A DNA stretch of 26,424 bases, from the NCBI GenBank assembly GCA_947483555.1, contig CANKMW010000015.1, forward strand, positions 1 to 26,424. The letters run 5' to 3'. The position numbers were made by a program, and so were the translations under genes. This stretch comes from Myxococcales bacterium (GTDB taxonomy: Bacteria; Myxococcota_A; Polyangia; Haliangiales; Haliangiaceae). Position 1 is the stretch's first letter; every line of letters starts with the position of its first letter. The notes under the pieces were generated by a model. That model had not been told where the DNA came from, did no database searches, and saw only the letters and a list, made by a program, of their open reading frames with translations. Shown piece after piece: positions 1 to 18,915 of this stretch.

Positions 1-135
1 CTGCTTAACCAGGGGCTCGACTGGTACAGCGCGATCCCAAACATGAAGCCGGAGCGCCTCGAGCTGCTGATGGCGACGTTCGATGCCGGCGTCCGCCGTC
101 ACGCGGTCTTCCGCGAAATCTTCGGCGTCATATGA
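1..135 (+). CDS. 3' end of an upstream gene running off the window edge. Frame 1 is open from position 1 to a TGA at 133-135 and reads ...LLNQGLDWYSAIPNMKPERLELLMATFDAGVRRHAVFREIFGVI*. Product unknown.
   Basis: Open frame from the window start with high GC3 codon usage typical of the neighbouring genes. No recognisable motif. It overlaps the annotated start of the cytochrome ORF in another frame. Confidence 0.4.
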   Translation: MLNQGLDWYSAIPNMKPERLELLMATFDAGVRRHAVFREIFGVI

Positions 136-2077
136 GGGGATGCCTCAGCTGCAGGGCAAGCACGGCGTGACGCCGTGCGCGAAGTGCCACACCCAGGCCA
201 ACCGGCAGGGCCTGCGCACGTTCCTGGGCGCCGAGCGCACCTGCGGCGGCTGTCACGACGATCACCCGCACGGCCGGCTGCGGTCGGCGCTGACGCGCTG
301 CGATCGCTGCCACACCGAGACCGTGTGGTCACCGCAGAAGCCCACCAAGGACTTCGATCACGACGCCAAGGGCGACGCCGCGATGGCGCTCGAAGGCAGT
401 CATGCCGACGTCGCGTGCAGCAAGTGCCATCCCAAGGCGGCGTTCAAGCTGGCCGGCTTCGATGGTCAGTGCGGGACGTGCCACGACAGCCCGCACGACG
501 GTCAGCTGTTCGGCACCAAGAAGTGCACGAGCTGCCACTCGCCGCGCCTCGGCTCGCTCGACGCGATCCAGTTCGACCACAAGAAGCAGGCCGGCTACCC
601 GCTGCTCGGCGAGCACGCTCGGCTGCCATGCGCGACGTGCCACACCCCGGCGCTCGGCAAGCGCGAGCCCACCGGCCGCTGCGAGGCCTGTCACGCCGAC
701 GACAACAAGCACGGCCCGCGCTTCGCGGCGTTCGGTGACCCGCCGCTGTGCACCACGTGTCACTCGCAGCGGGGCTGGAAGAGCGGCTTCCAGTTCAACC
801 ACGAGACCGGCGCCGGGTTCGAGCTGACCGGCAAGCACGCCGCGGTCGGCTGCCGGGCCTGCCATCGCGGCGCACGAGCGTCGGAGTTCGAGCGCTTCGA
901 CGTGAAGAAGAACGGCTGCATGAGCTGCCACCAGCACCAGCGTGCGCACGGCGGCAAGTTCACCAACGACCGCTGTCTGACCTGCCACAACGAGGCGGGC
1001 AGCAAGCGCATGCGCAGCGAGTCCCTCGAGCTGTTCCACGGCCAGGGTTCGAAGTTCCCGCTCGCCAACGCCCACGCCAAGGTCGACTGCCAGCTGTGCC
1101 ACGTCAACGACGTCTATGCCGAGACGCCTCGCGAGTGCGGGGTGTCGTGCCACGAGGACTCGCTGCACCGCGGCAGCCTGGGACCGGAGTGCTCGCGCTG
1201 CCACGAGCCGGGACAGTGGCCCGCGGTGCGCTTCGATCACGGCGCCGACACCGACTGGCGACTGGCTGGCAAGCACGCCGCGATCAAGACCTGCGACGGC
1301 TGTCACCCGAACCGGATCTACGACGGCACGCCGCGAACCTGCGGCGCGTCGGGTTGTCACCAGCGCGACGACGTCCACGCCGGCCAGCTCGGGACCCGGT
1401 GCGATACGTGTCACCGCGACGACGGCGGCCTGTTGTTCCGGCACAACCGCGACGCCCGCTTCAAGATCGACGGCGGTCACGTGGGCGTGGCGTGCGCGAG
1501 CTGTCACGCGACCCGGACCTTCAAGCCGACCCGTCGCGACTGCGTCGGCTGCCACGCCGAGCCCGCGGTGCACGCCGGCCGCTACGGCACCGCGTGCGAG
1601 CGCTGCCACTCGACCACCCGCTTCACCGACGTCTCGGCGTTGCACGACGTCGGTGACTTCTCGCTGACCGGCGCCCACGATCGGGTCGCGTGTCGCGAGT
1701 GCCACCAGCGCGGCGAGCAGCGGCGGGGCTCCGGCAACCTGTGCATCACCTGTCATCGCGACGACGACATCCACCAGAACTCGCTGTCGCCGCGCTGCGG
1801 CGAGTGCCATGGCCAGCGCGCGTTCGCGCCGGCGCGCTTCGATCATCTCGCGGTCGGCTGCAACCTGCTGGGGCAACACCGCACGTTGCCGTGCGCCGAC
1901 TGCCACCGCAGCGGCAACTTCGGCGCCGTCTCGCCGCTGTGCGTGAGTTGCCATCGCGACGACGCGGCCGCGGTCGCCGTCCCCGACCACGGCCCCCTGC
2001 TCGACTGCGGGCGCTGTCACAACCCCGACGTCTGGGTACCGGCCACCGCGCTCGGGGGGCAGAGCATATGTCGTTGA
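83..2077 (+). CDS. Multiheme c-type cytochrome with 27 heme-binding motifs, arranged as nine tandem c7-like triheme domains. Alternative start ATG at 140, directly preceded by GAGGGG.
   Basis: The translation contains 25 CXXCH motifs plus one CX3CH (CGVSCH) and one CX4CH (CGASGCH). They fall in recurring triads with spacings of about 12-13 residues. Each triad is preceded by F-x-H...G-x-H...C-x-x-CH, as in triheme cytochrome c7 (PpcA-like) domains. No N-terminal signal peptide is encoded from either candidate start. Confidence 0.88.
   Translation: MPASAVTRSSAKSSASYEGMPQLQGKHGVTPCAKCHTQANRQGLRTFLGAERTCGGCHDDHPHGRLRSALTRCDRCHTETVWSPQKPTKDFDHDAKGDAAMALEGSHADVACSKCHPKAAFKLAGFDGQCGTCHDSPHDGQLFGTKKCTSCHSPRLGSLDAIQFDHKKQAGYPLLGEHARLPCATCHTPALGKREPTGRCEACHADDNKHGPRFAAFGDPPLCTTCHSQRGWKSGFQFNHETGAGFELTGKHAAVGCRACHRGARASEFERFDVKKNGCMSCHQHQRAHGGKFTNDRCLTCHNEAGSKRMRSESLELFHGQGSKFPLANAHAKVDCQLCHVNDVYAETPRECGVSCHEDSLHRGSLGPECSRCHEPGQWPAVRFDHGADTDWRLAGKHAAIKTCDGCHPNRIYDGTPRTCGASGCHQRDDVHAGQLGTRCDTCHRDDGGLLFRHNRDARFKIDGGHVGVACASCHATRTFKPTRRDCVGCHAEPAVHAGRYGTACERCHSTTRFTDVSALHDVGDFSLTGAHDRVACRECHQRGEQRRGSGNLCITCHRDDDIHQNSLSPRCGECHGQRAFAPARFDHLAVGCNLLGQHRTLPCADCHRSGNFGAVSPLCVSCHRDDAAAVAVPDHGPLLDCGRCHNPDVWVPATALGGQSICR
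170..2050 (+). repeat. Nine tandem ~210-bp coding repeats, one triheme c7-like domain each, inside the cytochrome gene. Boundaries approximate.
   Basis: Periodic recurrence in the protein of (F/L)xH...~20...CxxCH...~12...CxxCH...~13...CxxCH modules. Divergent at DNA level but clearly modular. Confidence 0.55.
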
Positions 2078-3714
2078 GGGCCCGCCGGCCGTGGATGGCC
2101 GTGGTGGTGGTGACGACGATCGCGGCGTGGCCGTCGGCGGCACGGGCGCAGTTCGTCGATCGAACCGTGGTGGTCGACGACGACGGTGGTGACGGCGACG
2201 CCACGACCTCGGCCGCGGCCGACCCCACCGCGTCGCCGCCGGCCGGCGATCAGGCCCACGACCTCGAGGTTCGCCTGACCCTGTCGAGCTTCGTGCACCG
2301 CGAGCTCGGGTCCGACGGCCCGCCGCTGGTCGCGGGTGGTGACGCGCCCGATGACGCCAGTCCGGTGCGGCGGTTCTTCGGTGACGCGCGGCTCGAGCTC
2401 CGCGCCGACCGGGTCGGCGGCGGCAGCCTGCGCTTCGATGGTCGCATCCGCGAGACCACCAGCGAGCGCTACCAGGCCGGCGCCGGCGCCGGCGCCGAGT
2501 ACGAGCTGCGCGCTGCGTTCTACCGGCGCGCGCTGGGCGGCAGCGAGCTGCGGGTCGGGCGGCTGGTGGTCGACGCGGTCGGAGCGACCCGGCTCGACGG
2601 CGTCGCCGTCGAGCGGCGGCTGGCGGCGGCGTGGTCCGCGACGCTGTTCGGCGGCGCGTATCCGCAGCGCGGCTCGCGCTCGATCACCACCGACTACGCG
2701 GCGATCCGGGAAGCGGGCGCGGCCACCGGCGCGCCGCTGGTGCCGATCGTCGGTGGCGGCGGGCTGTCGTACCGTCGGCCGTCGCTGTACGGCGACCTCG
2801 GCGTGGGCGGCATCCACGTGCTCCAGGACGTGCCCGGTGCCGCCGGCGTCGCCGCCAGCCGCGTGTTCACGAGCGCGAGCGGTTACTGGCGGCCGGCGCC
2901 GTGGATCGACGCCTACCACTACGGCGTGCTCGAGGTCGCCGGCGCCGGCGACGTGCGCTTGACCAATGGCAGCCTCGGCGTCGACGGCTTCCCGGTGCCG
3001 GCGCTGAAGCTGGCCCTGACCGCCCATCACGTCGACACCGAGTTGCTCGAGATCAGCGCCCGCAACGTGCTCGAAGATCCGGACCCGGCGGCGATGGGCG
3101 TGGTGCAGAACGACGCCGCCGTGGTGCGGGTGTCGCAGGACCTGGCCCGGGCCGGCGTCAGCCTCGCGCTCGCGCAAGCCCGGTTCGAGCTGTCGGCCAG
3201 CGGCGGCCTGCACCGCCGTCCGGCCATCGACGTGCCACTCGCCGACGGCGGCGTGGTGGCGTTCCCGGCCGCGTCGATGGCCGAGGCCACGCTGGCGGTG
3301 CTCGACCGCCGTTCGTTCGCCGGCCTGCGGGTGGCGCTGTCGGGGAGCGCGCTGGGGCCGATCGGCGACCAGGCGCCGAGCCGGTCACGCGGCGTGGCGG
3401 CGCGGCTGGTCGTGAGTCGTGCCGGTGAGCGCGGTGATGTCGAGCTCGACCTCGTGGCCCAGCGGTTCTCCGACCTCGGGCCGCGGACCGGCTGCACGAC
3501 GCTCGATCCGCTGGCCTGTCACGGCACCGCCCGCAGCACCGCGGCGCAGGTCGGCGGGCTGCTCACCCTGCGCGCCGGGTCCGAGTGGTTGCTGCTGATC
3601 GACGGTCACCTCGGGGTCCGCGACGCCGAGTCGTCGACCGTCGGCGCGATGGTCGAGTGGCCGCGCGTGGTTTCGGTGAGCGGCTTCGCGAGACTTTCGT
3701 GGCGCTATCGGTGA
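2068..3714 (+). CDS. Secreted hypothetical protein of 548 aa with a cleavable signal peptide and pervasive amphipathic beta-strand periodicity. Putative outer-membrane beta-barrel (porin-like).
   Basis: ATG at 2068 overlaps the cytochrome stop (2075-2077). N-terminus MSLRARRPWMAVVVVTTIAAWPSAARA|QF is a classic Sec signal with an AxA site. The mature protein is rich in alternating hydrophobic/polar segments (EVRLTLSSFV, ELRAAFYRRAL, RLVVDAVGATRLDGVAVERRL, GLLTLRAGSEWLLLIDGHLGV) with many Gly/Tyr/Trp. The C-terminus ...VSVSGFARLSWRYR has alternating aromatics. The track ORF 1690-2067 upstream in the same frame overlaps the cytochrome gene and is not coding. Confidence 0.72.
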   Translation: MSLRARRPWMAVVVVTTIAAWPSAARAQFVDRTVVVDDDGGDGDATTSAAADPTASPPAGDQAHDLEVRLTLSSFVHRELGSDGPPLVAGGDAPDDASPVRRFFGDARLELRADRVGGGSLRFDGRIRETTSERYQAGAGAGAEYELRAAFYRRALGGSELRVGRLVVDAVGATRLDGVAVERRLAAAWSATLFGGAYPQRGSRSITTDYAAIREAGAATGAPLVPIVGGGGLSYRRPSLYGDLGVGGIHVLQDVPGAAGVAASRVFTSASGYWRPAPWIDAYHYGVLEVAGAGDVRLTNGSLGVDGFPVPALKLALTAHHVDTELLEISARNVLEDPDPAAMGVVQNDAAVVRVSQDLARAGVSLALAQARFELSASGGLHRRPAIDVPLADGGVVAFPAASMAEATLAVLDRRSFAGLRVALSGSALGPIGDQAPSRSRGVAARLVVSRAGERGDVELDLVAQRFSDLGPRTGCTTLDPLACHGTARSTAAQVGGLLTLRAGSEWLLLIDGHLGVRDAESSTVGAMVEWPRVVSVSGFARLSWRYR

Positions 3715-3822
3715 CGGTGTACGCGGGCTGCGCAGCCGTTCCGGGACCTGCACATCGGCGCGGCGCAGGTAGGCGGAACTCCGTGATCGCCGCGCGGCAT
3801 CACGCTTGCTGGAATCTTCCAG

Positions 3823-6800
3823 GTGGCCTGGACGCGCTCTCTCCTGCTCGCGCTGGCCGCGCTCGGGCTGGCGGCGTGCGATCTGGGCTCGTTCGATCCG
3901 AGCGACGGCGGCATCCCGGTCCAGGATCAGACCACCTGCGCCGCCAGCTGTCACGGCTCCGACGGCGTCGCGGCGCCGCCGCGCGATACCTCGGGCGGCA
4001 CCGATCCGGCGACGACCGGCGTCGGTGCGCACCGCGCGCACCTCGAAACCTCGTCGTGGCACAAGCGCCTGGAGTGCAGCACCTGCCATGTGGTGCCCGA
4101 GGAGATCGGTGCGGCCGGACACCTCGACACCGCGTTGCCCGCCGAGCTCACGTTCGGTGGCCTCGGCGAGAACAGCGCCTGGAGCGGCACCTCGTGCACC
4201 AGCTACTGCCACGGCGCCGCGCTCACCGGCGGCGCGACGACCGAGCCGGTGTGGATCCAGAACGCGAGCACGCCGAGCGACTGCGGCTCGTGCCACGGCG
4301 CGCCGCCGCCGGCGCCACACCCGCAGGATGGTGAGTGCGCCACCTGCCACCCGACGATGAACCCGGGCGGCGGCCTCGAGATCGCGTACCCGGAGTTGCA
4401 CATCGATGGCCACCTCGACGTCGTCAACGCCGCCGCCTGCGATAGCTGCCACGGCGCGGCCGGCGATCCGGCGCCACCGCGCGACACCACCGGCGGCACG
4501 GCGACCGCGGCGCGCGGCGTCGGCGCCCACCAGGTCCACCTCGGTAGCTCGTCGTGGCACGCGCAGCTCGATTGCACGCAGTGTCACCGCGTGCCGGCGG
4601 GCATCTCGGATCTCGGCCACATCGACACGCCGCTGCCGGCCGAGATCTCGTTCGGCACGCTGGCCGGGAACGGAACCTGGAACGGCACCTCGTGCGCCGG
4701 CTCGTACTGCCACGGCGCGACCTTGACCGGCGGCAACCGGCGCACGCCGGAGTGGACGCGCGTCGACGGCAGCCAGAGCCAGTGCAGCTCGTGCCACGGC
4801 GCGCCGCCGCCGCCGCCGCACCCGACCAACAACAACTGCGGCACCTGTCACCAGACCATGGCGCCGGGCGGCGGCATGGTGATCGCGTACCCGGCGCTGC
4901 ACATCGACGGCAACGTCGACGTGATCGGCGGCCAGGCCTGCGACGCCTGCCACGGCGCCGCCGGCAACCCGGCGCCGCCGCGCGACACCACCGGTGGCAC
5001 CTCGACCACGCTGCGCACCGTCGGTGCCCACCGCCGCCACCTCGACGCCTCGACGTGGCGCAAGGACCTCGCCTGCGTCGAGTGCCACCGCGTGCCGGGC
5101 GCGACCGCCTCGATCGGCCACCTGGACACGCCGGCGCCCGCCGAGATCACGTTCGGCGCGCTGGCCGGCACCGCGAGCTGGAACGGCAACAGCTGCGCCA
5201 ACACCTACTGCCATGGCGCCACCCTGGCCGGCGGCACGGCGGTGAATCCGGTGTGGACCCAGGTCGACGGCGCGCAGGGGCAGTGCGGCTCGTGTCACGG
5301 CACCCCGCCGCCGCCGCCCCACCCGGTCGACCCCGACTGCGGCGCCTGCCACGCGACGATGACCGCCGGTCTGGGCCTGGTGATCACCGATCCGGCCCGC
5401 CACATCGACGGCAACCTCGACGTCACCGGCGATCAGGCCTGCGATGCGTGCCACGGCTCGGGCGGCGTCGCCGCGCCGCCGCGCGACAACGCCGGCAACA
5501 CCGCGACCACCGCGCGCGGCGTCGGCGCGCACCGCGCCCATCTCGGCGCCGGCGCCTGGTCGGCGACCATCGCCTGCACCGATTGCCATCGCGTCCCCGG
5601 GGCGGTCAGCGCGGTCGGCCACGTCGACACGCCGCTGCCAGCCGAGGTCCGGTTCAGCGCCCGCGCCGGGACCGCGACCCAGTGGAACGGATCGCGCTGC
5701 TCCAACAACTACTGCCACGGCGCCACGCTCGGCGGCGGCACCACCACGGCGCCGATCTGGAACCAGGTCGGCAGCGGCCAGGCGGCGTGCGGATCGTGCC
5801 ACGGCCGGCCGCCGCCGCCGCCGCATCCGGCGCAGGGCGATTGCGGGACGTGTCACGACACCATGACGCCCGGCAACAACACGACGATCACCGCGCCAGC
5901 CCGCCACATCGACGGCAACCTCGACGTCACCACCAACCAGGCCTGCGACGCGTGTCATGGCTCCGGCGGCGTGTCGGCCCCACCCGACGACACCGCCGGC
6001 AACAACAGCACCGCCGCGCGCGGCGTCGGCGCGCACCGGGCGCATCTCGGCACCTCGACGTGGCACCAGCAGGTCACCTGTACGCAGTGTCATCGGGTGC
6101 CGACCGGCGTGACCTCGGTCGGCCACACCGACACGCCGCTGCCCGCCGAGCTCACGTTCAGCGCGCTGGCCGCGGGCACGACCTGGAACGGGACCACCTG
6201 CGGCACCAGCTACTGCCACGGCGCGACGCTGGCCGCCGGTGGCACCGCGACGGCGCCGCTGTGGACGCGGGTCGATGGCACCCAGGCCGCCTGCACCGCC
6301 TGCCACGGCGCGCCACCGCCGCCGCCGCACCCGAACGATAGCAACTGCCAGGGCTGCCACGCCCCGGTCGCCGGGCCGGGCCTGACCATCGCCACCCCGG
6401 CGCTGCACATCGACGGCACGCTGCAGGTGACCAGCATCCACTCGGCGGGTTGGGCGCAGCCGACCCAGCACGGCACCGCGTTCAACGCGCAGGGACCGTC
6501 GAGCTGCGCCACCGCCAGCTGTCACGGCGTCGCGCTCACCGGCGGGGCCTCGAACGTGTCGTGCAACGGTTGCCACACCGGCTGGCAGACCACCTGCGTC
6601 TTCTGCCACGGCGGGACGGACAACGCGACCGGGGCGCCGCCCGAGAGCGTGGCCGGCCTCACCGCCGTCGCCGATCGTCACGTCGGGGGCCACACCGCGC
6701 ACGTCGCCGCCTCGACGACCCACGCCGCCTACGCCTGCAGCGCCTGTCACGTCACGCCGTCGAACGCGCTGAGCGCCGGCCACGTCGACGGCGTCGCCAA

Positions 6801-7197
6801 CGCCGAGGTGCGCTACTCGACGATGAACGCCGCCGCTACCTACAACGTGACCACCGCCGGCTGCGCCACGCTCTACTGCCACGGCAACGGCCGCACCAGC
6901 GGTGGCCTCGCGACCTGGACCTCGACCACCAACCTCGGCTGCGCCTCGTGTCACAACGATGGCGGCAATCCGCAGCTCATGTCCGGCGATCACAAGAAGC
7001 ACATCGCCGACGAGAACATGGCCTGCACCGAGTGCCACCAGACCGTGGTCAACGCCGCCGCGCAGATCATCGCCCCCGCCCTGCACGTCAACGGCCTCAA
7101 GGAAGTGAGGATGGCGGTCGGCGGCACCTGGAACCCGGCCAATCGCTCGTGCTCGGGCCTCCCCGGCGGCGCCTGCCACGGCACCAAGACCTGGTGA
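3823..7197 (+). CDS. Giant multiheme c-type cytochrome lipoprotein of 1124 aa with ~32 heme motifs. Five tandem ~167-aa modules carry paired CX4CH...CXXCH motifs of the Geobacter type (TIGR01904-like), followed by a distinct C-terminal domain with ~7 hemes.
   Basis: GTG start. The lipoprotein signal MAWTRSLLLALAALGLAAC has the lipobox L-A-A-C. Each module repeats CxxCH, CxxCH, CX4CH (CAGSYCH, CANTYCH, CSNNYCH, CGTSYCH; CX3CH CTSYCH in module 1), CxxCH, PPPPPHP, CxxCH. The C-terminal part adds CATASCH, CNGCH, CVFCH, CSACH, CATLYCH, CASCH and CTECH. The opposite-strand ORF 3385-7977 is Ala/Gly/Arg-rich junk. Confidence 0.9.
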   Translation: MAWTRSLLLALAALGLAACDLGSFDPSDGGIPVQDQTTCAASCHGSDGVAAPPRDTSGGTDPATTGVGAHRAHLETSSWHKRLECSTCHVVPEEIGAAGHLDTALPAELTFGGLGENSAWSGTSCTSYCHGAALTGGATTEPVWIQNASTPSDCGSCHGAPPPAPHPQDGECATCHPTMNPGGGLEIAYPELHIDGHLDVVNAAACDSCHGAAGDPAPPRDTTGGTATAARGVGAHQVHLGSSSWHAQLDCTQCHRVPAGISDLGHIDTPLPAEISFGTLAGNGTWNGTSCAGSYCHGATLTGGNRRTPEWTRVDGSQSQCSSCHGAPPPPPHPTNNNCGTCHQTMAPGGGMVIAYPALHIDGNVDVIGGQACDACHGAAGNPAPPRDTTGGTSTTLRTVGAHRRHLDASTWRKDLACVECHRVPGATASIGHLDTPAPAEITFGALAGTASWNGNSCANTYCHGATLAGGTAVNPVWTQVDGAQGQCGSCHGTPPPPPHPVDPDCGACHATMTAGLGLVITDPARHIDGNLDVTGDQACDACHGSGGVAAPPRDNAGNTATTARGVGAHRAHLGAGAWSATIACTDCHRVPGAVSAVGHVDTPLPAEVRFSARAGTATQWNGSRCSNNYCHGATLGGGTTTAPIWNQVGSGQAACGSCHGRPPPPPHPAQGDCGTCHDTMTPGNNTTITAPARHIDGNLDVTTNQACDACHGSGGVSAPPDDTAGNNSTAARGVGAHRAHLGTSTWHQQVTCTQCHRVPTGVTSVGHTDTPLPAELTFSALAAGTTWNGTTCGTSYCHGATLAAGGTATAPLWTRVDGTQAACTACHGAPPPPPHPNDSNCQGCHAPVAGPGLTIATPALHIDGTLQVTSIHSAGWAQPTQHGTAFNAQGPSSCATASCHGVALTGGASNVSCNGCHTGWQTTCVFCHGGTDNATGAPPESVAGLTAVADRHVGGHTAHVAASTTHAAYACSACHVTPSNALSAGHVDGVANAEVRYSTMNAAATYNVTTAGCATLYCHGNGRTSGGLATWTSTTNLGCASCHNDGGNPQLMSGDHKKHIADENMACTECHQTVVNAAAQIIAPALHVNGLKEVRMAVGGTWNPANRSCSGLPGGACHGTKTW
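3937..6432 (+). repeat. Five direct tandem repeats of ~501 bp (167 codons) inside the lipoprotein cytochrome gene. Each encodes a 5-heme module.
   Basis: Module starts at the conserved motif CD(A/S)CHG fall at aa 39, 206, 373, 540 and 708. That is a period of 167-168 aa, about 501 bp. Protein-level identity between units is high, so substantial DNA-level identity is expected. Confidence 0.8.
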
Positions 7198-7248: not shown

Positions 7249-8205
7249 ATGACGGGCCATGATCGCCTCCGGACGCTCACCGCCGGCGCGGTGGTCGCCG
7301 CCGCGTGCTCCGGGCCCGGCGGCGGCGGTGGCGAGCGCCTGATGGCCGAGATCCCGCCCGGGCCGCGGCCCGCGCCCGCGGCGCTGGTGGAGCCGGCCGC
7401 CGCCGGCCCGTTCTCGCCGGCGGCCTACGCGCGACACGTGCTGGCGTTGCGCGAGCGGCTCGCTGCCGCCGGTCACGGCGAGCTCAACATCCGCATCGAC
7501 GAGCCGTTCGTGGTGGTCGGTGACGATGAACCCGCCGTGCTGGCGCGGCGCGCGCAGACGGTGCGCTGGGCGGTCGAGCGGCTGGAGCGCGACTTCTTCG
7601 CGCAGCGACCGACCCGGATCCTGGACGTGTACCTGTTCTCCACCGCGGCCACCTACCAGCGCGGCGTGCGCGCGCTGACCGGCGCCGCGCCCGGCACGCC
7701 GTACGGGTTCTACTCGAGCGAGCACGACGGCCTGTTCATGAACATCGCCACCGGCGGCGGCACGCTGGTGCACGAGCTCGTGCACCCCTACGTCGAGGCC
7801 GACTTTCCCGGCGCGCCGGCGTGGCTCAACGAAGGGCTCGGCTCGCTGTTCGAGCAGAGCTCCGACGACGACGGCCACATCATCGGCCTCACCAACTGGC
7901 GCCTCGCCGGTCTCCAGCAGGCGATCCGCGCCGGCACGGTGCCCAGCTTCCGCGCGCTGACCAAGATGAGCGAGCACGCGTTCTACGTCCAGGACCGGGG
8001 CACCAACTACGCCCAGGCCCGCTACCTCCTCTACTACCTGCAGCAGGAGGGCAAGCTGGTCGACTTCTACCGCCGGTTCCGCGCCGCGCGCGCCGCCGAT
8101 CCGACCGGCTACGGCACCCTGGTCACGGCGCTCGGCGAGGCCGACATGGCGGGATTCCAGCGCCGCTGGGCGGCCTGGGTGCTGGAGCTGCGGTTCGACG
8201 ATTGA
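7249..8205 (+). CDS. Putative zinc metallopeptidase (HExxH), probable lipoprotein. Alternative GTG start at 7246.
   Basis: GGAGG sits immediately upstream. The N-terminus MTGHDRLRTLTAGAVVAAACSGPGGGGG resembles a lipoprotein signal with Cys followed by a Gly-rich linker. The motif HELVH, followed by NEGLGSLFE about 20 aa later, resembles a gluzincin HExxH...E arrangement. Confidence 0.7.
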   Translation: MTGHDRLRTLTAGAVVAAACSGPGGGGGERLMAEIPPGPRPAPAALVEPAAAGPFSPAAYARHVLALRERLAAAGHGELNIRIDEPFVVVGDDEPAVLARRAQTVRWAVERLERDFFAQRPTRILDVYLFSTAATYQRGVRALTGAAPGTPYGFYSSEHDGLFMNIATGGGTLVHELVHPYVEADFPGAPAWLNEGLGSLFEQSSDDDGHIIGLTNWRLAGLQQAIRAGTVPSFRALTKMSEHAFYVQDRGTNYAQARYLLYYLQQEGKLVDFYRRFRAARAADPTGYGTLVTALGEADMAGFQRRWAAWVLELRFDD

Positions 8206-9310: not shown

Positions 9311-10225
9311 TCAGCGCTCGGCGGCGAGCACGTCGGCGAAATAGACCTGGTAGTGGCGCGGCGTATGCGGGCGCACCCACGGCACGCGGCGGTGGTGGGC
9401 GACGACGCGCCAGCGATCGCGGGCCAGGAGCGCGAGCAGGCGGTCGTCGTCACCGGTGCCGAGCGACGGGTCCGGCGTGGCGAGAATCAGGCGGCCGCGC
9501 GGTCGCAGCGCGACGGCGGCCGCCTCGAGCAGGCGTTCGGGTGCGGCGAGCAGGTCGACCAGCTCGGCGGCGACGATGGCGTCGACGCTGCGGGGCCGCA
9601 GCGGCAGCGCCTCGGCGTCGAGCACGGCGGCGGCGACCCTCGGTCCGCGTCCGGCGGCGCGCAGCGCGGCGCGCAACGACAGGTCGCCGACCACGAGGCG
9701 CTCGACGCCGGGCACGCGGGCCAGGCGTCGCGCCAGCACGCCGGCGCCGGCGCCGACCTCGACGATGGTCCGCGGCCGCGCCGGCAGGGCGGCGATGATG
9801 GCGGCGTCGACGCTGGCGTCGCCGCCGGTCGCGTCGAGGAAGCGGCGGAAGGTGGCGGCGGCGGGGCCGGCGTCGGCCATCGCCGCGGCATCGCCGGCCG
9901 GCGGCGCAGCGTCGCCTACTTCGTGGGCCACCCAGTCGTCGCCGAACGCCAGCGGTTCGGTGCGCGCGCCGGCGCGGGCGAAGGCGTCGACGACGGCCAC
10001 CGCGACGCGGGGCGCGCGCCCGCGCTCGGCGAGGGCGGCGAGCGCGGCGTCGCGGTAGCCGGCGAGGTAGTCGGCCGGCGACGGCACCACGATCGGCACC
10101 CCGCCGAGCACCGGAAAGCGGGCGCCACAGCGCCGGCACGCCACCAGCAGGGCGCGACCGGGCATCACCGCCAGGCGGCCGGCGCACGAAGCGCACGCGA
10201 TCACGTCGAGGACCCAGGCGCGCAT
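9311..10225 (-). CDS. Fusion of a Trm112-like zinc ribbon to a class I SAM-dependent methyltransferase.
   Basis: Start MRAWVLDVIACASCAGRL...CRRCGARFPVLGGVPIVV is a Trm112/YcaR-type C-x2-C...C-x2-C motif with the GIP signature. Downstream, TIVEVGAGAGVLARRLA is SAM-binding motif I. The start lies 2 nt after the stop of the upstream rluA-like gene. An alternative start is at 10246. The rest of track ORF 9311-10981 is an overlap artefact. Confidence 0.78.
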   Translation of the reverse strand: MRAWVLDVIACASCAGRLAVMPGRALLVACRRCGARFPVLGGVPIVVPSPADYLAGYRDAALAALAERGRAPRVAVAVVDAFARAGARTEPLAFGDDWVAHEVGDAAPPAGDAAAMADAGPAAATFRRFLDATGGDASVDAAIIAALPARPRTIVEVGAGAGVLARRLARVPGVERLVVGDLSLRAALRAAGRGPRVAAAVLDAEALPLRPRSVDAIVAAELVDLLAAPERLLEAAAVALRPRGRLILATPDPSLGTGDDDRLLALLARDRWRVVAHHRRVPWVRPHTPRHYQVYFADVLAAER

Positions 10226-10227
10226 GG

Positions 10228-10974
10228 TCACGCCACTGTCGCCCATTTCGCGTCGAGCCACGCTCGCAGCGCGACCAGATCCTCCGCCAGCGGCGCCTCG
10301 ACCACCAGCCTCCGCCCGTCCGGACGCGTCACCTCGAGGCCAGCGGCGTGCAGCGCCAGGCGCGCGCCCGGCGCGCCGTCGAGCATGCCGCGCAGCGTGC
10401 GCTTGCCGTACAGCGGATCGAACAGGATCGGGGCCTCGAGGCTGCGCAGGTGGACGCGGATCTGATGATGACGGCCGGTCAACGGGCGGGCCTCGAGCAG
10501 CGTGACGGTGTCGAGATCGACGATCCCTGGACTCGGCCCCGGCGCGGTCTCGCCCGGCACCGGGGCGCGCGACCACCGCGCCAGCGCGGTCATCTCGGTG
10601 ACCGACGGCTTGCCGCGCTCGCCGGCCACCGCCGGTCGGGCCTTTCCGCGCCGCGCCTCGACCACCGCGACCTCGACGGTCCGCTCGCCGGGCAGGTCGC
10701 CGGCCGCGAAGGCCAGGTAGCGCTTGTGCACGCGGCGGGCCGCGAAGGCATCGTTCAGCCAGCGGTGGGCGGCGGCCGACCGGGCCATCACCACCACCCC
10801 GGAGGTGTCCTTGTCGATGCGGTGCACCACCCACAGCGGCTCGCCGCGCGCGGCCTCGAGCCGGTGGCGCAGGGAGGTCGCCGGGTCGCCGTCGCGCTCC
10901 GGAATGACGGCGAGGCCGGCGGGCTTGGCCACCGCGATCAGCTCGTCGTCTTCGAACAGCAGCGGCGCGTTCAT
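10228..10974 (-). CDS. RluA-family pseudouridine synthase. A GTG at 11013 is an alternative start.
   Basis: Contains the catalytic signature HRIDKDTSG and the LTGRHHQIRVHL motif typical of RluA/TruC-family enzymes. The N-terminus MNAPLLFEDDELIAVAKPAGL matches the family's start. GGATAAG lies upstream of the ATG. Confidence 0.85.
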   Translation of the reverse strand: MNAPLLFEDDELIAVAKPAGLAVIPERDGDPATSLRHRLEAARGEPLWVVHRIDKDTSGVVVMARSAAAHRWLNDAFAARRVHKRYLAFAAGDLPGERTVEVAVVEARRGKARPAVAGERGKPSVTEMTALARWSRAPVPGETAPGPSPGIVDLDTVTLLEARPLTGRHHQIRVHLRSLEAPILFDPLYGKRTLRGMLDGAPGARLALHAAGLEVTRPDGRRLVVEAPLAEDLVALRAWLDAKWATVA

Positions 10975-11148
10975 GTCGCACTTATCCCACCCCGGCGCGG
11001 CGCGCGGAAGCACTCGCGTTTTGCCCCGTGCCGCGTCGCGACCGGTGCGTCGCGGGTGTTAGGATGCGATCGCATTCGGCCGGGGCATGTGCCCGCGCTC
11101 GTACCTCGAAGGGGAGGTGCCGCGGCGGGCGCGGCCCCACGAGGGATC

Positions 11149-14100
11149 ATGGCCACCAGCGACTTCGAAACCGCCGCTGCCACCGTCAAGAGTGCGCCGC
11201 ACTCGACCGCCGCCTGGGACGCGATCGAGGAGCTCGCGCGCGAGCACGAGAAACCCGACCACGTGGTCGCCCTCTACCGCGACGTGTTGCAGAAGGGCCT
11301 CGACCCGCAAGTCGTCGAGATGGTCGGCGAACGCGCCGGCGCATTCTGCGACGAATGGTTCGGCGACGACCCCAAGGTCGCCGAGGGCCTGCTGTCCAAG
11401 GTGCTCGAGCTGGCGCCGCAGTCGGAGTCGGCGCTCGGTCGCATGTCGGTGCTCCTGACCCAGAACGAGCGCTGGAACGATCTGCTCCGCCTCTACGACC
11501 GCGCGCTGACCGGCGTCAAGGACCCCGGCCGCCGCATCAAGCTGCTGCGCGAGGCGTCGCAGCTGGCCAAGGACGTCGCCAATCAACCCGAGCAGGCGAT
11601 CGCCTACCTGCAACGCCTGCTGCCGCTGACTCCGGACGACGCTCAGCTCGGACAGTCGCTCGAGCGGCTCCTCGAGCGCTACGAGCGCTGGGTCGATCTG
11701 ATCGCGCTGTGGGAGAGCCGCCTGGAGCGGCAGAGCAAGGCCGAGCGCGAGAAGAGCCGGGCCCGCATCGCGGCGTGCTGGCTCGACAACTTGCAGGACT
11801 CGGCCAAGGCGCTGGCCTCGGTGCGTCCGCTGCTGGCCGAGTCGGACGACGACAAGGAGGCGTGCACGCTGCTCGAGCGCATCATCGAGGCCGGCCACAC
11901 GCCAGCCAAGGAGCGCGAGGCGGCGCTCGACATCCTGCGCGCCCACTACGACGCGACCGCCCGGCCGCGCGAGGTGATCCGGGTCCTCGAGCGCGTGATC
12001 GAGCGCGATCCGGCGGGCAGCCAGGCGCTGCGCGAGGAGGCCGGCGCCCGGCTGGCCGAGCTCGACGACGACAGCGCGGCGATGGACCACTATGCCGCCT
12101 TGCTCGCCCTGACCCCCGACTCGTCGGTGACCCAGGAGAAGTTGCGGCAGCTGGCGCAGCGCTCGAACGGGTATGCGCGCTACGCGGCCGGGGTGGCCAC
12201 CGCCGCCGAGCACGCCATCATGCCGGCGCGCAAGGTCGAGCTGCTGTCCGAAGCCGCCCGCACCCGCCTCGATCTGCTCGACGATCCGGCGGGCGCCATC
12301 GAGCTGTACCAGCGCGCGCTCGAGCTGCCCGGTGCGGGCGAGAAGGAGCAACTGCACGTCTGCCGGCGGCTGTCGGAGCTGTACTCGCGGGTCGATCGAC
12401 CCCGCGAACGCTTCTCGATCCTCGAGCGGCTGGCGGCCCTCGAGCCGTCGGCGTCCACGCGCCGCGGCGTGATCGGCGAGGCCGCCCGCCTGGCCGAGAG
12501 CCTCGGCGAGACCGACAAGGCGCTCGGCCTGTGGCGGCAGCGCATCGATCGCGATCCCGACGACCTCGGCGCCCTCGACTCCGCCATCCTCCTGCTCGAG
12601 ACCTCGGCCCGCTGGACCGAGCTGGTGACGGCGCTCGACCAGCGCGCCGGCAAGAACGTGTCGGCGGCCCAGAAGCGCGCCGACCTCACGCGCATCGCGG
12701 TCGTGTTCCGCGATCCCGTCCGCGACGTGGAGCGCGCCATCGCCGCCTGGCAGCGGGTGCAGACCGAGTTCGGCGACGACGCCGAGACCGTCGGCGCGCT
12801 CACCGACCTGCTGGCCGAGGTGTCGCGCTGGCGCGAGCTCGCCGATCTGCTCGAGCGCACCAGCGGTCGCGATGTCGCCCGCACCACGCATCGCCTCAAC
12901 CGCCTGGGCGAAGCGCTGGCCACCCATCTCGGTGAGCCGGCCCGCGCCCTGGCCGCCTTTCGCGCCGCGCTGGCGATCGATCCGGTCAACGATCAGGCTC
13001 GGGCCGGACTGCTGACGCTGCTCGAGGTCGCCGCGTTTCGTAAGCCCGCCGCCGACGCGCTGGCGACCAGCTATCGCGAGAACCAGGACTGGGCCGGGTT
13101 CCTCAAGCTGTTGCCGGCTCGGCTCGCCGATGCCCCCGACGATCGGACGCGGCTCGCCCTCATGCGCGAGGCGGCCTACATCCAGAGCAACAACACCAAC
13201 GATCCGGCCGGCGCGCTGAACAGCCTGGCGATGGCGTTTCCGCTCGCGCCCCGCGATGGCGTGATGGAGGGCCAGATCCTCGACCTGGCCGCTCGCACCG
13301 GCAACCCCGGCGCGGCGGCGGCGTCGAGCGCCCTCGAGGCGGCGATCCGTGCGCTCGCCGACGATCCCGACGAGGCCGCGCGCATGCGCCTGGTGCGCGC
13401 CGCCTTGCTCGAGGACAGCCTGGGCGACGAAGCCGCCGCGCTCGACGAGTACGTGACCGTGTTCCGGCACGACCGCGGCAACCAGCTCGCGGCCACCGCG
13501 GTGGTCCGGCTGGCGCCCCGGCGCGGCAAGTGGGCCGACGCCGCCGCCGCGTTGCTCGGCTACGCGGCCGCCAAGGAGCGCCTCGACGAGGGGCTGTACG
13601 CCAGCTACGAGCAGGCCGGGGCCGCGGATGCCGGCGCGATCGACGCGTCGGCCGCGGCGCTCGAGCAGGTCGCGGACGCCAGCGGCCTGCCGCCGGCGGT
13701 GGCGGCGCTGGTGTGGTCGCGGATCGCGATGTGGCACCGCGGCCGGCGTGATGATGGGCGCGCCGCGGTCGCCGCGTTCCGCCGCTCGCTCGCCGCCGGC
13801 GGCGATCGAGCCGACACGTTGCGCGCGGTGGCCGAGCTGGTGCGTCCGGACGGGCCGAGCGCGGCCTTGCTCGACGTGCTGCGCCGGCTGTCCGATGCCG
13901 ATCCCCGCGATCTCGACGTGCTGGTCGAGGCCGCCGACACCGCCAGCCGGCTCGGAGACCGCGAGGCCTCGGTCACCATCCTCGGCCAGGTGCTGGGCCG
14001 GGCCACCGGCGCGTGGCGCGGCTCGGCGGCCGTGCAGTCGTCACGTCCCGCCGAGGCGGTGGTGCGCTGGGCCATCGACGGCCTGGTCGAGCTGCATCGG

Positions 14101-17100
14101 GTCGCCGGCCGGCCGCGGGTCGCGCTCGATCTGCTCACCGAGTCGGCGCGCCTGCCGTTCGACGTCGCCACCCGCCGTGATCTGCGGCTGCGCGCGGCGG
14201 CGATGGCGTCCGGAGACCTGCGCGACAACGGCGCGGCGATCGACATGTATCGCGGCGTGCTCGCCGAGAGCCCCGGCGATCTCGAGATCATCGGTCGGCT
14301 GGGCGCGCTGCTCGACGTCGAGCGTCGCCACGCCGAGCTGCTCGGCCTGCGCCACGTCCAGCTCGGGCTCGAGGTCGAGCCGGCCAGCCGCCTCGACCTG
14401 CGTCTCGACATCGCGCGGCTGGTCGGGGTCGTCGAGGAGACCGGCGGTCGCTACGAGGCCCTGATCGCCAACCTCGCCGATCAACCCGGTCACGACGCAT
14501 CGATCGATGCCGCCCACAGCTTCCTGGCCGGCAAGGGCCAGCACAAGGCGCTCGCCGACCTGCTCGAGGAGCAGTCCGGCAAGCTCGAGGCCGGCGGCGA
14601 TGTCGCCAAGGCCGCGCGCCTGTGGGCCCGCTTCGCCGTGGTCGCCGAGCGCGACTCGCGCGAGATCGATCGCGCGATCGCCGGCCATCGCCGGGTCGTC
14701 ACCCTGGCGCCGACCCAGGAGTCGTTCCGGGCCCTGGCCCGGTTGCAGCTCGATCGCGGTCAGCCGGCGGCGGCGGTGCCGTGGTTCGAGAGCCTGCTGG
14801 CCACGGTGACGGGCGCCGAGCGGCAGACGATCGTCGATCAGCTCGCCCGCGCCCACATCGCGGCCAAGCAGGACGATCGGGCCATCGCCGCGATCGAGAG
14901 CGCGCTCGACGACCGCGAGCCGGCGCTCGAGCTGCGGCTCTTGCTCGCCGAGCTGTACCGCAAGGCCGAGCAGTGGGAGCCGCTGGCTCGCCACCTCACC
15001 CGCTCGCTGTCGTGGTTCGGCGACGACAAGGGGCCCGAGCTGGCCCGCGAGGCCGCCGCGATCTACACCGACAAGCTCGGTGCGCCGGCCAAGGCCATCC
15101 CGGCGCTCGAGAAGGCGCTGGCGCTGGATCCGACCGACAAGGACATGCGAGCCCAACTCGCCGTCGGGCTGCGCGCCGCCGGCCGGCTGGTCGAAGCCCG
15201 CGCCATCCTCGCCGAGCTGATCGAGGGCTTCGGTCGCCGCCGCTCGCCGGAGCGGGCCCAGCTCCACGTCGAGCTGGCCAAGGTCGCCCATGCCGAAGGC
15301 AAGGTCGACGAGGCGCTGACCGAGATGGAGGCGGCGTCCAAGATGGACGTCAACAACGCGCGCGTCCAGCGCGAGCTCGCCGAGCTGTGTCGCGCCGCCG
15401 GACAGGTCGACAAGGCGGAGCGCACCTACCGGGCCCTGCTCCTCATCGTCCGCCGCCAGCCGCCCGGCGACGACGAGGCCGCCGTCGGTCAGAGCGAGGT
15501 GCTGTTCGAGCTGTCGCGGCTGGCCGGCTCGCATGGCGACGCCACCCAGGCCAAGGAGCTGCTCGAGAGCGCGGTCGATGCCGCGGTGCAGTCCGACGTC
15601 GAGGTCCGGCGCCTGCGCCGCAGCCTGATCGCCCACAACGAGGCCGAGACGCTCATGCGCGTGCTCGAGCTGCGCCTCGCGGCCACCAGCGAGGCCGCCA
15701 GCCAGGCCCGGCTGTACGCCGACATGGCCGACGTGCTCGATGGCTCGCTCGCGCGCTCGGCCGATGCGCTCGATGCGATCATCAAGGCCATCAACCACGC
15801 CCCGTGGCGGCTCGACCTGCACGACAAGGCCTGGCTCCTGGCCCGCAAGTCGGGCGAGACCAAGAAGCTGGTCGAGGCGGTCGAGACCGTGGTCGATCGG
15901 CTGCGTCGCAAGGACGATCCACCGCTGGTGGCGTCGCTGTTGCTGCGCGCCGGTGAGGCGCTCGAGAACGATGCCAACGACCTGCCGGCGGCCGCGGCGC
16001 TGTACCGGCGCGTCGAGATGCTCGGCGAACGCCTGGCCGAGGCGTACTACGCCCAGGCCCGAGTCGCCGGCGCGCTCGGCGACGACGAGCAGCAGGCCCG
16101 CGCGCTCGACAACATGCTCAAGCTCGCCAGCAGCGACGGCGGCGACGCCTCGCCGGCGCAGACCGACGCGCTGTACCGGCTGGCGGAGATCTTCATCGCC
16201 ACCCCGGCGCGTCGCGCCCAGGGCATCGATCTGATCGAGCGCGCCTTCGCGGCCGAGCCGCGCTGGGCCCAGGCCGGGCGCGTGCTGCGCGGCGCATCGT
16301 CGACCGATGCCAGCGACGCCCGCGTGATGACGCTCTACGAGCGGGTGGCGCGCAACGGTGGCGACAGCGAGCTGTTGCTCGACTTTCTCGACAAGCGGGC
16401 GCGGCTCGCCGACGCGACCCCGGCCCAGGTCCGCGAGGCGGTCGATCTGGCCGTCGAGATGGCCCACCACGAGCGCGCCGAAGCGCTGCTGGAGCGCGCC
16501 GTCGTGGCGGCTCGCGACTCCGCCGATGGCGTCGGGGGCGCGGTGTGGGCGGTCCTCGCGCTCACCGATCGTCGCCTCGCCGGCGGCGATCTCGCCGCCG
16601 CCCGCGAGCTGGTCTACGAGATCATCGGCGTCGCCGAGCCGGCCGAGATGGATCCGCTGATCGGGCGGGTGGCCGCCCGCGCGGCGCAGGAGCGCGCTGG
16701 CCACGGTCTGGCCGCCGAGATGTACGAGCTGCTCCGCGAGCGCGCACCGGCGGATCGCGCGGTGTGGGAGCCGCTGGTCGCCCTCTACCGCGACATGGGT
16801 GATGGTGACCGGCTGGCGAGCGTGATCTCGTCGACGCTCCCCAACCTCACCGATCCCGGCGAGCGCAACGCCCTGCGCCGTGCCCACGCCGAGTACTTGA
16901 TCGAGTCACTGAAGCGGCCGCACGACGCCGCCGACGTGCTGCGCGACGCGCTGCGCGACGATCCCGACGATCTCGGCGCCGCCGTGCTGCTGGAGAAGAC
17001 GTTGCGCGCGCTCGGTGACGACGACGGGCTGACCGAGTTCTTGTGGGCCCGCTTCGACGACGCCGTCGCTCGCAACAGCCGCGAATCGACGCTCGACGTG

Positions 17101-18915
17101 GCGTCTCGCCTCGGGCCGCTGGTCGAGTCGACGGGCGGCAACGCGGCCAAGGTCTACCGCACGGCGCTCGGCGTCGCTCCCGACGATCGCGAGCTGCTGC
17201 GTCGCGTCGTGGTGTCGCTCACCGCCGACGACGATCCGCGCGAGTCGGCGGCGTTGATGGAGCGGCTGCTGGCGGTCGAGACCCCGGAGCAGGCGCCGGC
17301 GCTGTGCTGGCGTCTGGCCAGCGCCTACGAGGCCGCCGAGGACTGGCCCGGCGTCCAACGCACCCTGGCCGCCGCGCACAAGGCGGCGCCCGACGACGCC
17401 GCGATCCACGACCGCCTCGAGCAGTTCTACCGTGACACCCAGCAATGGGTCGAGCTGGCCCAGTTGATGATCAGCGACGCCGCCCGCACCACCGACGTCG
17501 CGGTCGCGGTCGATCGCCTGCGCGAGGCCGCGGCGGTGTACTCGGGGGTGCTCGGCCAGCCGCTGGCCGCCGCCGAGGCGCTGCGGGCCGCCCGCGCTCG
17601 CCAGCCCGAGACGCCGGCGCTGTCGGCCGAGCTGGCGGCCGCGCTGGCCGCCGGTGGCGATCAACGCGGCGCGGTGACCTCGCTGAGCGACGCGCTGGAG
17701 GGGCCCGATGGTCCCGACAGCGCGCCGGTCAAGGGCACCGCGCGCGTCGACCTCTTGCTGCTGCGGGCCAGCCTGCGCCAGCAACTCGGCGACGAGGACG
17801 CGGCGGTCATCGATCTCGACGACGCCTACCAGCTCGATCGCGGCCGGGCCGCCGCCGCGCTGGGCGACGGCCTCGAGCGCATGCGGGGGCGGGCCGAAGC
17901 GGCCGGCGACATGAGCAGCGAACGCACCGCGACCCTGCGGCTGGCCCAGCTGCTCACCGAGCACGGCGAGGTCGAGCGCGCACGGGATCTGCTGGTCGGG
18001 TGGATCGAGCGCATGCCCAGCGACCCCGATCCGCTCTATCTGCTGCGCGACATGGACGCCGGCATCGAGCACTGGGACGGCGTCATCGCCGCGTGCACCC
18101 GCCTGGCCTACATCGTCGAGGGCGAGCCGCAGGTGCAGGCGGCGCTCGACGTCACCGATGCGTCGGCGCGCGCCGGCAAGCCGGCCGATGCGATCGCGGT
18201 GCTCGAGATGGTCCACCTGGCCCAGCCCGGCGCCGACGCGATCCGCCTCAAGCTGCGCGAGCAGTACGAGGCGGCCGGCGCCCACCGCGAGCTGGCGGTC
18301 ATCCTGATGGCCGACGCCGACCACGGCACCGACACCCAGGCACGGTTCGCGGCCTACAAGCGGGCCGCCGAGCTGTTCCTGGCCGCCGGCGATGCGTCGG
18401 CGGCGGCGGTCCCGGCCGGCAAGGCCGCCGAGCTGGCGCCCGACGATCACGTCACCGCCATGCTGCTGGTCGACGTGTTGATCGGCTCCGGCCGCACCGA
18501 GGAGGCGGCGACCGCGCTCGAGACCGCGATCGCGGCCCAGAAGAAGCGCACGCCCGAGCTGGCCATGATGCAGCAGCGGATGGGGCGGGTCGCCGGCATG
18601 CTCGGCGACCGTGACGGCCAGCTCGGCTGGCTCAAGAAGGCGTTCGACGTCGATCGCAAGAGCGGCGAGATCGCCGCCGAGCTGGCTCAGCTCGCGACCG
18701 AGATCGGCGACTACGAGCTGGCCCTCAAGCCGTTGCGTGCGATCACGCTGATGGACAATCCGTTGCCGATCACCCGCCCGATGGCGCTGCTCTGGGAAGC
18801 GAAGATCGAGCACGCGCGTGGCAACCGCGCCAAGGCCGAGCTGTGGGCCAAGAAGGCGCTGCGCGAGGATCCGCACTTCTCCGAGGCCCAGCAGTTCCTC
18901 GACGAGCTGCCCTGA
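11149..18915 (+). CDS. Giant cytoplasmic TPR/alpha-solenoid repeat protein of 2588 aa, hypothetical.
   Basis: ATG at 11149 is preceded by GAGGGA. No signal peptide. The whole length is helical-repeat-like (Leu/Ala/Glu/Arg/Asp-rich with recurring A-x-x-x-Y/L...P-D/N hairpin motifs, e.g. [56 protein letters not shown]). The track ORF start at 10348 overlaps the convergent rluA gene and is not real. Three long antisense ORFs inside this gene are Arg/Gly-rich artefacts. Confidence 0.85.

Follow-up and report, generated by a model that had tools for sequence, protein, structure and literature searches.

What kind of cytochrome is encoded by the heme-rich open reading frame at one end of contig CANKMW010000015.1, and does this copy still work? 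The stretch analyzed here (the window; 26,424 nucleotides, positions 1 to 26,424 of the forward strand, assembly GCA_947483555.1) comes from a Myxococcales bacterium of the Haliangiaceae and has a G+C content of about 73%. An earlier annotation made from the letters alone (the sequence-only reading) had described the frame as a nanowire-like cytochrome built from nine tandem c7-type triheme domains. Our analysis indicates that the frame is what is left of a gene for a 30-heme cytochrome after loss of its 5' end at a mobile element, and that this copy is very probably non-functional. Intact relatives are widespread, lie beside a gene for a predicted outer-membrane beta-barrel and may well take part in an electron conduit across the cell envelope.

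Heme motifs and repeat units

The open reading frame (nt 83 to 2077, forward strand) encodes 664 amino acids, including 56 Cys and 55 His, and the G+C content at its third codon positions (0.91 in its own frame) is a codon bias typical of a genuine gene. It contains 27 heme motifs, namely 25 CxxCH, one Cx3CH (CGVSCH, residues 352-357) and one Cx4CH (CGASGCH, residues 420-426), which amounts to one heme per 24.6 residues. The motifs run from a first Cys codon at nt 176 to the His of the last motif at nt ~2020. When the residues of the same protein were shuffled (n = 2000), the mean number of CxxCH motifs was 0.37 and the maximum was 3. The 27 motifs that the sequence-only reading had counted between nt 170 and 2050 were therefore correct, as was its statement that two units use CX3CH and CX4CH variants, which belong to units 5 and 6. 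A phmmer search of the full-length cytochrome against the PDB gave no match, and promoter and terminator scans of window nt 1-4000 found none.

The units were delimited by cutting the protein ahead of each F-x-H. This gave nine units of 66 to 82 residues with three motifs apiece, which aligned in register. The invariant columns were a His four to five residues ahead of motif 1, the three heme motifs and a His three to five residues past motif 2, and the gaps between motifs within units were 11-18 residues (median ~13). F-x-H or F-H opens units 2 to 7 and unit 9, A-L-H opens unit 8, and unit 1 has no such start because the gene is cut inside it. The order within a unit is F-x-H, His, motif 1, motif 2, His, motif 3. 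The alignment bears out the earlier description of nine triheme repeats of about 70 residues with F-x-H, a distal His and a spacing of about 12-13 residues; that description had left out one distal His, the third, which lies between motifs 2 and 3. With three non-motif His per unit there are six His for every three hemes, enough for bis-His ligation throughout. CGVSCH and CGASGCH are each motif 2 of their own unit, and both are invariant in 96 family members.

A family of 30-heme cytochromes

A search of a database of 5.8 billion proteins (E <= 0.001) with the window cytochrome gave 2977 matches. The best 120 were 51-70% identical to it, nearly all 757-811 residues long, and came from Haliangium ochraceum and from metagenome-assembled genomes (MAGs) of Kofleriaceae and Myxococcales; the closest was 70% identical, and no intact, near-identical protein was present. 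Intact homologs are longer by about 110 N-terminal residues, which hold a signal peptide of the Sec type, a start conserved as DDF(L/F)xSSPG and three further CxxCH motifs. Thirty motifs (28 CxxCH, one Cx3CH and one Cx4CH) were found in 76 of 95 homologs, whose alignment has 62 conserved His and 62 conserved Cys columns and no periodic Met: three Met columns besides the start codon are conserved, none of them periodic, and the unit alignment has no conserved Met. The signal peptides of intact homologs lack a lipobox, and the protein would therefore be periplasmic. Read from these alignments, the family is a secreted cytochrome of ten tandem triheme modules of about 70 residues, with 30 hemes, in the class III (c3/c7) superfamily. 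The nine-domain, 27-heme architecture of the sequence-only reading is not the family form, and the agreement with GSU2210, which has 27 hemes (PMC10138318), is a coincidence produced by the truncation.

When one genome per GTDB species was scanned, no fewer than 502 loci proved to encode a relative. Intactness and synteny were counted in the best 80 of them (L008-L087), all from Kofleriaceae, Haliangiales, Myxococcales or related MAGs, and in all 80 the gene was intact, with a signal peptide and 28-30 motifs. Sixteen of these loci (L008-L023) form subfamily A, 60-69% identical to the window cytochrome, and 64 form subfamily B, 46-57% identical. Several genomes have two paralogs of the cytochrome. 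A literature search found no relevant report on multiheme cytochromes or extracellular electron transfer in Haliangium or Kofleriaceae, nor on "30 hemes"; the family is widespread, and we found no publication on it.

Two Cys outside the heme motifs, C593 (nt 1859-1861) and C663 (nt 2069-2071), are invariant in 96 homologs, and the second lies in a conserved C-terminal tail (W651, G658, I662-C663-R664). The pair may serve as a disulfide cap or as an end that docks to the barrel.

Class of the triheme units

The whole window protein matched the Pfam model Cytochrome_C7 (PF14522), which is defined broadly as "c7 and related", with 88.5 bits in eight stretches (cut-off 24.8), and PF14537 (Cytochrom_c3_2) and PF02085 (Cytochrom_CIII) matched as well. 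Scored singly against the c7 model, units cut in the frame of the sequence-only reading reached 12.2-23.2 bits and in no case the cut-off. With the frame moved by one heme, so that a unit runs His, motif 3, F-x-H, His, motif 1, motif 2, the scores were 16.2-28.3 bits, and four of five exceeded it. The Pfam model thus favors the shifted module frame; hhalign favors the original one. Aligned by hhalign to reference sequences, the nine-unit profile matched PpcA with 90.7% probability and Desulfuromonas acetoxidans c7 with 88.8%, the three heme motifs being in register in both cases, and Desulfovibrio vulgaris c3 with 70% over 52 columns, where His and heme columns coincide. In the PpcA alignment no His fell at H17 or H47, and one His lay near H20, one column off. 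There were also 11 inserted residues between the two N-terminal His and an extra conserved His past motif 2. Aligning the units to PpcA, a check that the sequence-only reading had proposed, consequently recovered the register of the three heme motifs and not the distal His positions H17 and H47. Its c7-type label holds in part: the whole-protein Pfam match and the hhalign register speak for it, and the sub-cut-off scores of single units and the missing c7 His positions speak against it.

The NCBIfam model TIGR04257 (nanowire_3heme, c(7)-type triheme domain) matched neither the window protein (E <= 0.1) nor the intact homolog P0001 (E <= 1); it weakly matched a neighboring gene (15.6 bits). In a profile search of the PDB, PpcA appeared only at E 0.01, behind MtrF, HmcA, OmcA, the nine-heme cytochrome, GSU1996 (3ov0, 1.5e-6), MtrA, STC and c3, and the top matches included 1z1n (E 1e-10), 2e84, 1duw and 19hc. 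The last ~150 residues of the cytochrome scored 33.5-39 bits against TIGR03508 (DmsE/MtrA decaheme), far under its cut-off of 192. Each GSU1996 domain contains a single His-Met heme (PMC10138318). With TIGR04257 negative and no such heme here, the likeness to GSU1996 and its 27-heme relatives that had been proposed does not amount to family membership. More generally, a polymer of triheme repeats of the c3/c7 superfamily is supported by Pfam, hhalign and the unit alignment. Going by these comparisons, the unit can safely be called a triheme module of the class III superfamily, and the specific c7 assignment appears only partly supported.

Partner genes and a proposed trans-envelope conduit

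The gene that follows the cytochrome gene encodes a protein with a signal peptide and no sequence match in Pfam, NCBIfam or the PDB. Its AlphaFold 2 (AF2) model (pLDDT 80.6, pTM 0.77) has 22 long antiparallel strands and a few short ones. Foldseek matched the model only to outer-membrane barrels (probability 1.00), first the 24-strand ushers PapC and FimD and then AlgE and Occ porins. The protein is predicted to be an orphan outer-membrane beta-barrel of about 22-24 strands. The 10-nt overlap between cytochrome and barrel genes recurs in Haliangium-type loci, and the two genes are translationally coupled. A barrel homolog is directly downstream of the cytochrome in 75 of the 80 best loci, the other five of which end at contig ends, and barrel and cytochrome adjoin in the window and in L002-L005 too.

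Next in the window is a gene for a lipoprotein cytochrome whose 24 CxxCH, two Cx3CH and six Cx4CH motifs are arranged in a repeat of ~167 residues. It matched TIGR01904 (CxxxxCH/CxxCH domains) with 178.8 bits in six stretches, and is likely the cell-surface partner. Of the 16 subfamily A loci, 12 have it (two of the 12 are cut by a contig end). A further partner is a protein of 705-739 residues (here the Fer4 protein) with two 4Fe-4S clusters (CxxCxxCxxxC) followed by at least four hydrophobic, His-rich helices, which may form a b-heme membrane domain. It is encoded at L002:493-2709, and homologs occur in 69 of the 80 best loci; the remainder have no upstream DNA. In subfamily A the gene is 4-6 kb upstream on the opposite strand, and in most subfamily B loci it lies immediately upstream on the strand of the cytochrome gene. 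The Fer4 protein is a candidate inner-membrane electron donor.

In L004, the closest long contig, the Fer4 gene lies beside a GltD-like gene for a flavoprotein with Fer4, FAD-binding and Pyr_redox domains, which flanks the cluster on one side (L004:3480-7786, reverse strand). On the other side (L004:17728-22307, forward strand) is an alternative-complex-III-like set consisting of a 213-residue multiheme cytochrome, a 1082-residue Fe-S protein and an NrfD protein; the window genes at that position are unrelated.

We judge it somewhat better than even that intact family members act in a trans-envelope conduit of the porin-cytochrome type. The long cytochrome would take electrons at the inner-membrane side and pass them from heme to heme over the periplasm. 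They would then go through or at the barrel to a surface cytochrome or an external acceptor, or the flow would run in the reverse direction. GSU1996 holds 12 hemes over 12 nm, as stated in the title of its structure paper (cited by PMC10138318). Applied to 30 hemes, that spacing of about 1 nm per heme would give a length of ~25-30 nm, more than the ~17 nm width of the periplasm (PMC11492766), and one molecule could therefore link an inner-membrane donor to the barrel and the surface cytochrome. A stricter version is that a single 30-heme polypeptide of ~25-30 nm spans the whole periplasm, is fed by the Fer4 protein, ends in the barrel and wires cytoplasmic reductant to the surface without periplasmic shuttles. 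We offer it tentatively and think it rather less probable than not.

Four observations count against a conduit. The barrel has no detectable sequence relation to MtrB/PioB or any known porin-cytochrome porin, and none of the 64 subfamily B loci has the lipoprotein cytochrome. Haliangium and other cultured relatives are regarded as aerobes, and our literature search found no paper tying Haliangium-type relatives to extracellular electron transfer.

The strongest competing explanation keeps closer to the sequence-only reading: the protein would be functional and free in the periplasm, a nanowire or capacitor with nine c7-type domains that is the equivalent of GSU1996 or GSU2210 and stores or relays electrons. 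The tandem triheme repeats, the Cytochrome_C7 match in eight stretches, the PpcA and GSU1996 matches, the likewise 27 hemes of GSU2210 and the lipobox-free signal peptide of intact homologs, which makes them periplasmic, would all agree with it. Yet 27 is an accident of truncation in a family that has 30, and the window copy has no signal peptide. TIGR04257 is negative, no His-Met heme is present, the c7 His positions are not conserved, and single units in the frame of that reading stay below the Pfam cut-off. A barrel neighbor is also present in 75 of 80 loci, and to our knowledge no such obligate neighbor has been described for GSU1996. We therefore consider this explanation unlikely. The conserved barrel gene favors a conduit over a free capacitor, and of the earlier "periplasmic wire or capacitor" it is the wire, with which heme density and bis-His capacity agree, that we retain.

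Six MAGs hold one subfamily A and one subfamily B cytochrome-barrel module (L008/L028, L015/L039, L022/L062, L012/L056, L019/L063 and L018/L079), which suggests two conduits with different partners in one cell.

Loss of the 5' end at a mobile element

The first codons of the window do not belong to the cytochrome gene. By tblastn, the 44-residue fragment encoded by nt 1-132 was 41% identical to the C-terminus of the IS4 family transposase WP_142832625, a weak match over 44 residues only, in which both sequences end at the stop codon. Weak matches of the same fragment to ribosomal protein L33 were dismissed as chance. Window nt 26-144 are 92% identical to positions 2706-2824 of contig L006 (JGI), where they lie downstream of an IS21 istA-istB pair. 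The segment is also common to contig L007 (~92% identity), where it adjoins a gene for an MFS transporter. Agreement between the window and L007 extends to nt ~149, and farther on the flanks of the window, L006 and L007 are unrelated. DNA identity to the intact cytochrome gene of L004 begins at nt 149, with CTGCAGGGCAAGCAC encoding LQGKH, and protein homology begins there likewise. The end of the element agreement and the start of the cytochrome identity therefore place the junction at nt 144-149, inside what the alignment delimits as unit 1. There was no second copy of the element segment (nt 26-148) in the window, and a 21-nt pattern from the element end had no match in the genome contigs searched.

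The possible ATG starts at nt 83 and 140 fall within mobile-element sequence, and no hydrophobic signal peptide follows either. At the junction this copy lost its signal peptide, its first three hemes (unit 0) and, with the F-x-H that would open unit 1, one distal His. The missing part is absent elsewhere in the window; relocation within the window was considered and rejected, as only paralogous internal units matched. In the sequence of events that we propose, the right end of an IS4-like mobile element would have broken the gene at nt ~144-149, leaving its 3' 85% (nt 149-2077). Attachment of c-type hemes requires export to the periplasm (Ccm, Sec). A copy that is not exported by Sec would therefore receive no hemes there and is most likely inactive, and we hold with considerable confidence that truncation has made the window cytochrome non-functional.

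Derivation of the left flank from an IS21 element, suggested by the istA-istB pair of L006, was rejected since L006 diverges from the window upstream of nt 26. That divergence comes right after IS21-like terminal repeats, so in L006 an IS21 element would have inserted into an older IS4-like remnant. L006:154-2824 is accordingly an IS21-type element (istA with an rve domain, and istB) inside an IS4-like remnant, that is, nested mobile elements on a JGI metagenome contig, and IS21-like direct repeats (GGGGAGATGTAATTG / GGGGAAATGTAGTTG) lie ahead of the junction there.

Two points limit the case for a true insertion: the window holds only one end, the right one, of the mobile element, and the junction at nt ~144-149 could be an assembly chimera, in which case the real genome has an intact 30-heme gene and a metagenome assembler joined the element end to it. 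The source is evidently a metagenome assembly, the join is at the extreme edge of the window, and the cytochrome product under start 83 or 140 has no exact database record. The barrel protein identical to that of the window (P0121) is known only from NCBI, Logan and ENA assemblies. Against a chimera, the break matches to within 5 nt the natural end of the element as set by two independent contigs (L006 and L007), which is the pattern of a true insertion. Element and cytochrome gene share no repeat of 19 nt or longer that could promote a misjoin, and among 5.8 billion proteins there is no intact, near-identical one, the best being 70% identical. A chimera is thus improbable, and insertion of the mobile element is the reading that we retain. 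P0121 was found on a 3.6-kb Logan contig and on a 122-kb contig; exact look-ups of the lipoprotein cytochrome and of the product of the gene at nt 7249 returned no database record.

Electron wire or enzyme

Some large multiheme proteins, such as NrfA, HAO and MccA, are enzymes. Three motifs and three spare His per module mean that every heme of the family can be low-spin bis-His. Neither a CxxCK motif nor a ligand-less heme site was seen, and with no open catalytic site apparent in the sequences the protein would be an electron wire. That it is instead a catalytic reductase or oxidase of a soluble substrate, as a weak match of the unit profile to NrfA might suggest, is highly improbable given the spare conserved His for each heme motif (62 His, 30 motifs), the lack of any CxxCK or ligand-less site and the lack of a non-heme catalytic domain, the Pfam matches being to cytochrome families only.

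Features of the window and neighboring genes

The features of the locus are collected in Table 1. Directly after the cytochrome cluster, at nt 7249-8205 (forward strand), is a gene for a putative lipoprotein (AAAC) with weak similarity to Peptidase_MA_2 and DUF1570; relatives have other genes there. A giant open frame with TPR repeats (nt 9799-18912, forward strand; 2855-3038 residues) overlaps in its 5' part with a pseudouridine synthase gene on the opposite strand (nt 10231-11058), and the true start of the TPR gene is therefore probably downstream of nt 11058. The genes between nt 18959 and 26405 are unrelated neighbors. They encode a LuxR-type regulator, a 475-residue protein with HNH and RuvA_C domains, a trypsin-like protease, a protein with a proprotein-convertase P-domain and a PA14 domain, and an FHA-GGDEF diguanylate cyclase.

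Table 1. Coordinates of the mobile-element remnant, the truncated cytochrome gene with its units, and the partner genes in the window.
Feature	Position (nt)	Strand	Evidence or remarks
IS4-family-like transposase, last 44 codons and stop (133-135)	1..135, frame 0	+	41% identity to WP_142832625 residues 341-384 of 384
Right end of mobile/repeated element	26..148	+	Outer boundary between nt 144 and 149
5'-truncated gene of 30-heme class III multiheme cytochrome, 27 motifs left	149..2077	+	Starts within unit 1; stop codon 2075-2077; homologs 757-811 aa, 51-70% identical
Unit 1, partial, aa 20-87	140..343	+	Without F-x-H; heme motifs C32, C54, C73
Unit 2, aa 88-160	344..562	+	FDH93, H107, C112, C130, H138, C148
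Unit 3, aa 161-234	563..784	+	Unit alignment
Unit 4, aa 235-314	785..1024	+	Unit alignment
Unit 5, aa 315-380	1025..1222	+	Motif 2 is Cx3CH variant CGVSCH, nt 1136-1153
Unit 6, aa 381-448	1223..1426	+	Motif 2 is Cx4CH variant CGASGCH, nt 1340-1360; resembles cytochrome c3 heme II CGTAGCH
Unit 7, aa 449-516	1427..1630	+	Unit alignment
Unit 8, aa 517-582	1631..1828	+	Opens with A-L-H, not F-x-H
Unit 9, aa 583-664, with conserved C-terminal tail (W651, G658, I662, C663)	1829..2074	+	Family alignment
Outer-membrane beta-barrel partner, 548 aa, secreted, ~22-24 strands predicted	2068..3714	+	AF2, Foldseek; start overlaps cytochrome stop by 10 nt
Lipoprotein multiheme cytochrome, 1124 aa, 32 heme motifs	3823..7197	+	Lipobox LGLAAC; TIGR01904, PF09698

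Significance

Soils, sediments and wastewater contain abundant Kofleriaceae and Haliangiales, which are usually treated as aerobic predators. The module of 30-heme cytochrome, orphan barrel and Fer4 protein is present in more than 500 species-level genomes, and if the proposed conduit is real, extracellular electron exchange, whether with metals, humics, minerals or partner cells, would be a common, unrecognized trait of these groups. A single polypeptide that bridges the periplasm, if it exists, would be a third design beside diffusing shuttles (PpcA, STC) and polymerized filaments (OmcS, OmcZ). The window copy itself is probably dead, and the interest is moderate for the family and low for the damaged locus.

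Comparison with known systems

Like GSU1996 (12 hemes, PDB 3OV0), GSU0592 and GSU2210 of Geobacter sulfurreducens, the cytochrome is one heme-dense, Sec-exported polypeptide of tandem class III triheme modules of ~70-80 residues, and its unit profile matches 3ov0. It differs from them in the negative TIGR04257 result, in a bis-His capacity for all hemes where GSU1996 has one His-Met heme per domain, in ten units rather than four or nine and in the layout of the distal His. It is also paired with an outer-membrane barrel gene, and it belongs to another phylum (Myxococcota, Polyangia).

With PpcA (PDB 1OS6) and D. acetoxidans c7 the unit shares three CxxCH motifs in about 70 residues, the F-x-H start and hhalign probabilities of 89-91%. 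In c7, however, H17-x2-H20 precedes heme I and H47 precedes heme III, whereas here ~12-14 residues separate the two N-terminal His, and the third His is past motif 2; motif 2 follows motif 1 after 11-18 residues in these units and after 19 in PpcA. D. vulgaris c3 corresponds in the order of ligands and hemes (H(b) to H25, motif 1 to heme I, motif 2 to heme II, H(c) to H70, motif 3 to heme III), and the ~12-residue gap between motifs 1 and 2 equals that between hemes I and II of c3. The Cx3CH and Cx4CH variants stand at motif 2, the position of the Cx4CH of c3 (CGASGCH here, CGTAGCH in c3). Unlike c3, the unit has three hemes rather than four, with no heme IV equivalent and no His straight after motif 1, and it is polymerized tenfold. 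HmcA (16 hemes) and NhcA (9 hemes) of sulfate reducers were among the top PDB profile matches, but over short, CxxCH-centered stretches. They too are polymers of c3-like modules, and they work with membrane Fe-S redox complexes. HmcA is globular and modular, mixes tri- and tetraheme c3-like domains, contains one high-spin heme and has no barrel partner.

The cluster as a whole is laid out like MtrCAB of Shewanella (PDB 6R2Q) and OmaB-OmbB-OmcB of Geobacter, as a triad of periplasmic multiheme cytochrome, outer-membrane barrel and lipoprotein multiheme cytochrome, in the present case as predicted from the genes. Translational coupling of cytochrome and barrel and a weak DmsE/MtrA-like character of the C-terminal ~150 residues add to the likeness. 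MtrA has 10 hemes and OmaB 8, and the MtrB/PioB barrel has 26 strands. The periplasmic component here, by comparison, has 30 hemes and falls outside the MtrA/DmsE family (33.5 bits on TIGR03508 against a cut-off of 192), and the barrel is of an orphan family with ~22-24 strands and no MtrB/PioB sequence match. In place of a quinol dehydrogenase of the CymA/NapC type, the upstream partner is a protein with Fer4 clusters and a membrane domain. The cytochrome thus resembles the Geobacter poly-c7 proteins in the way it would work and the cluster resembles porin-cytochrome systems in its layout, yet by the TIGR04257, MtrA/DmsE and MtrB/PioB models it belongs to none of them.

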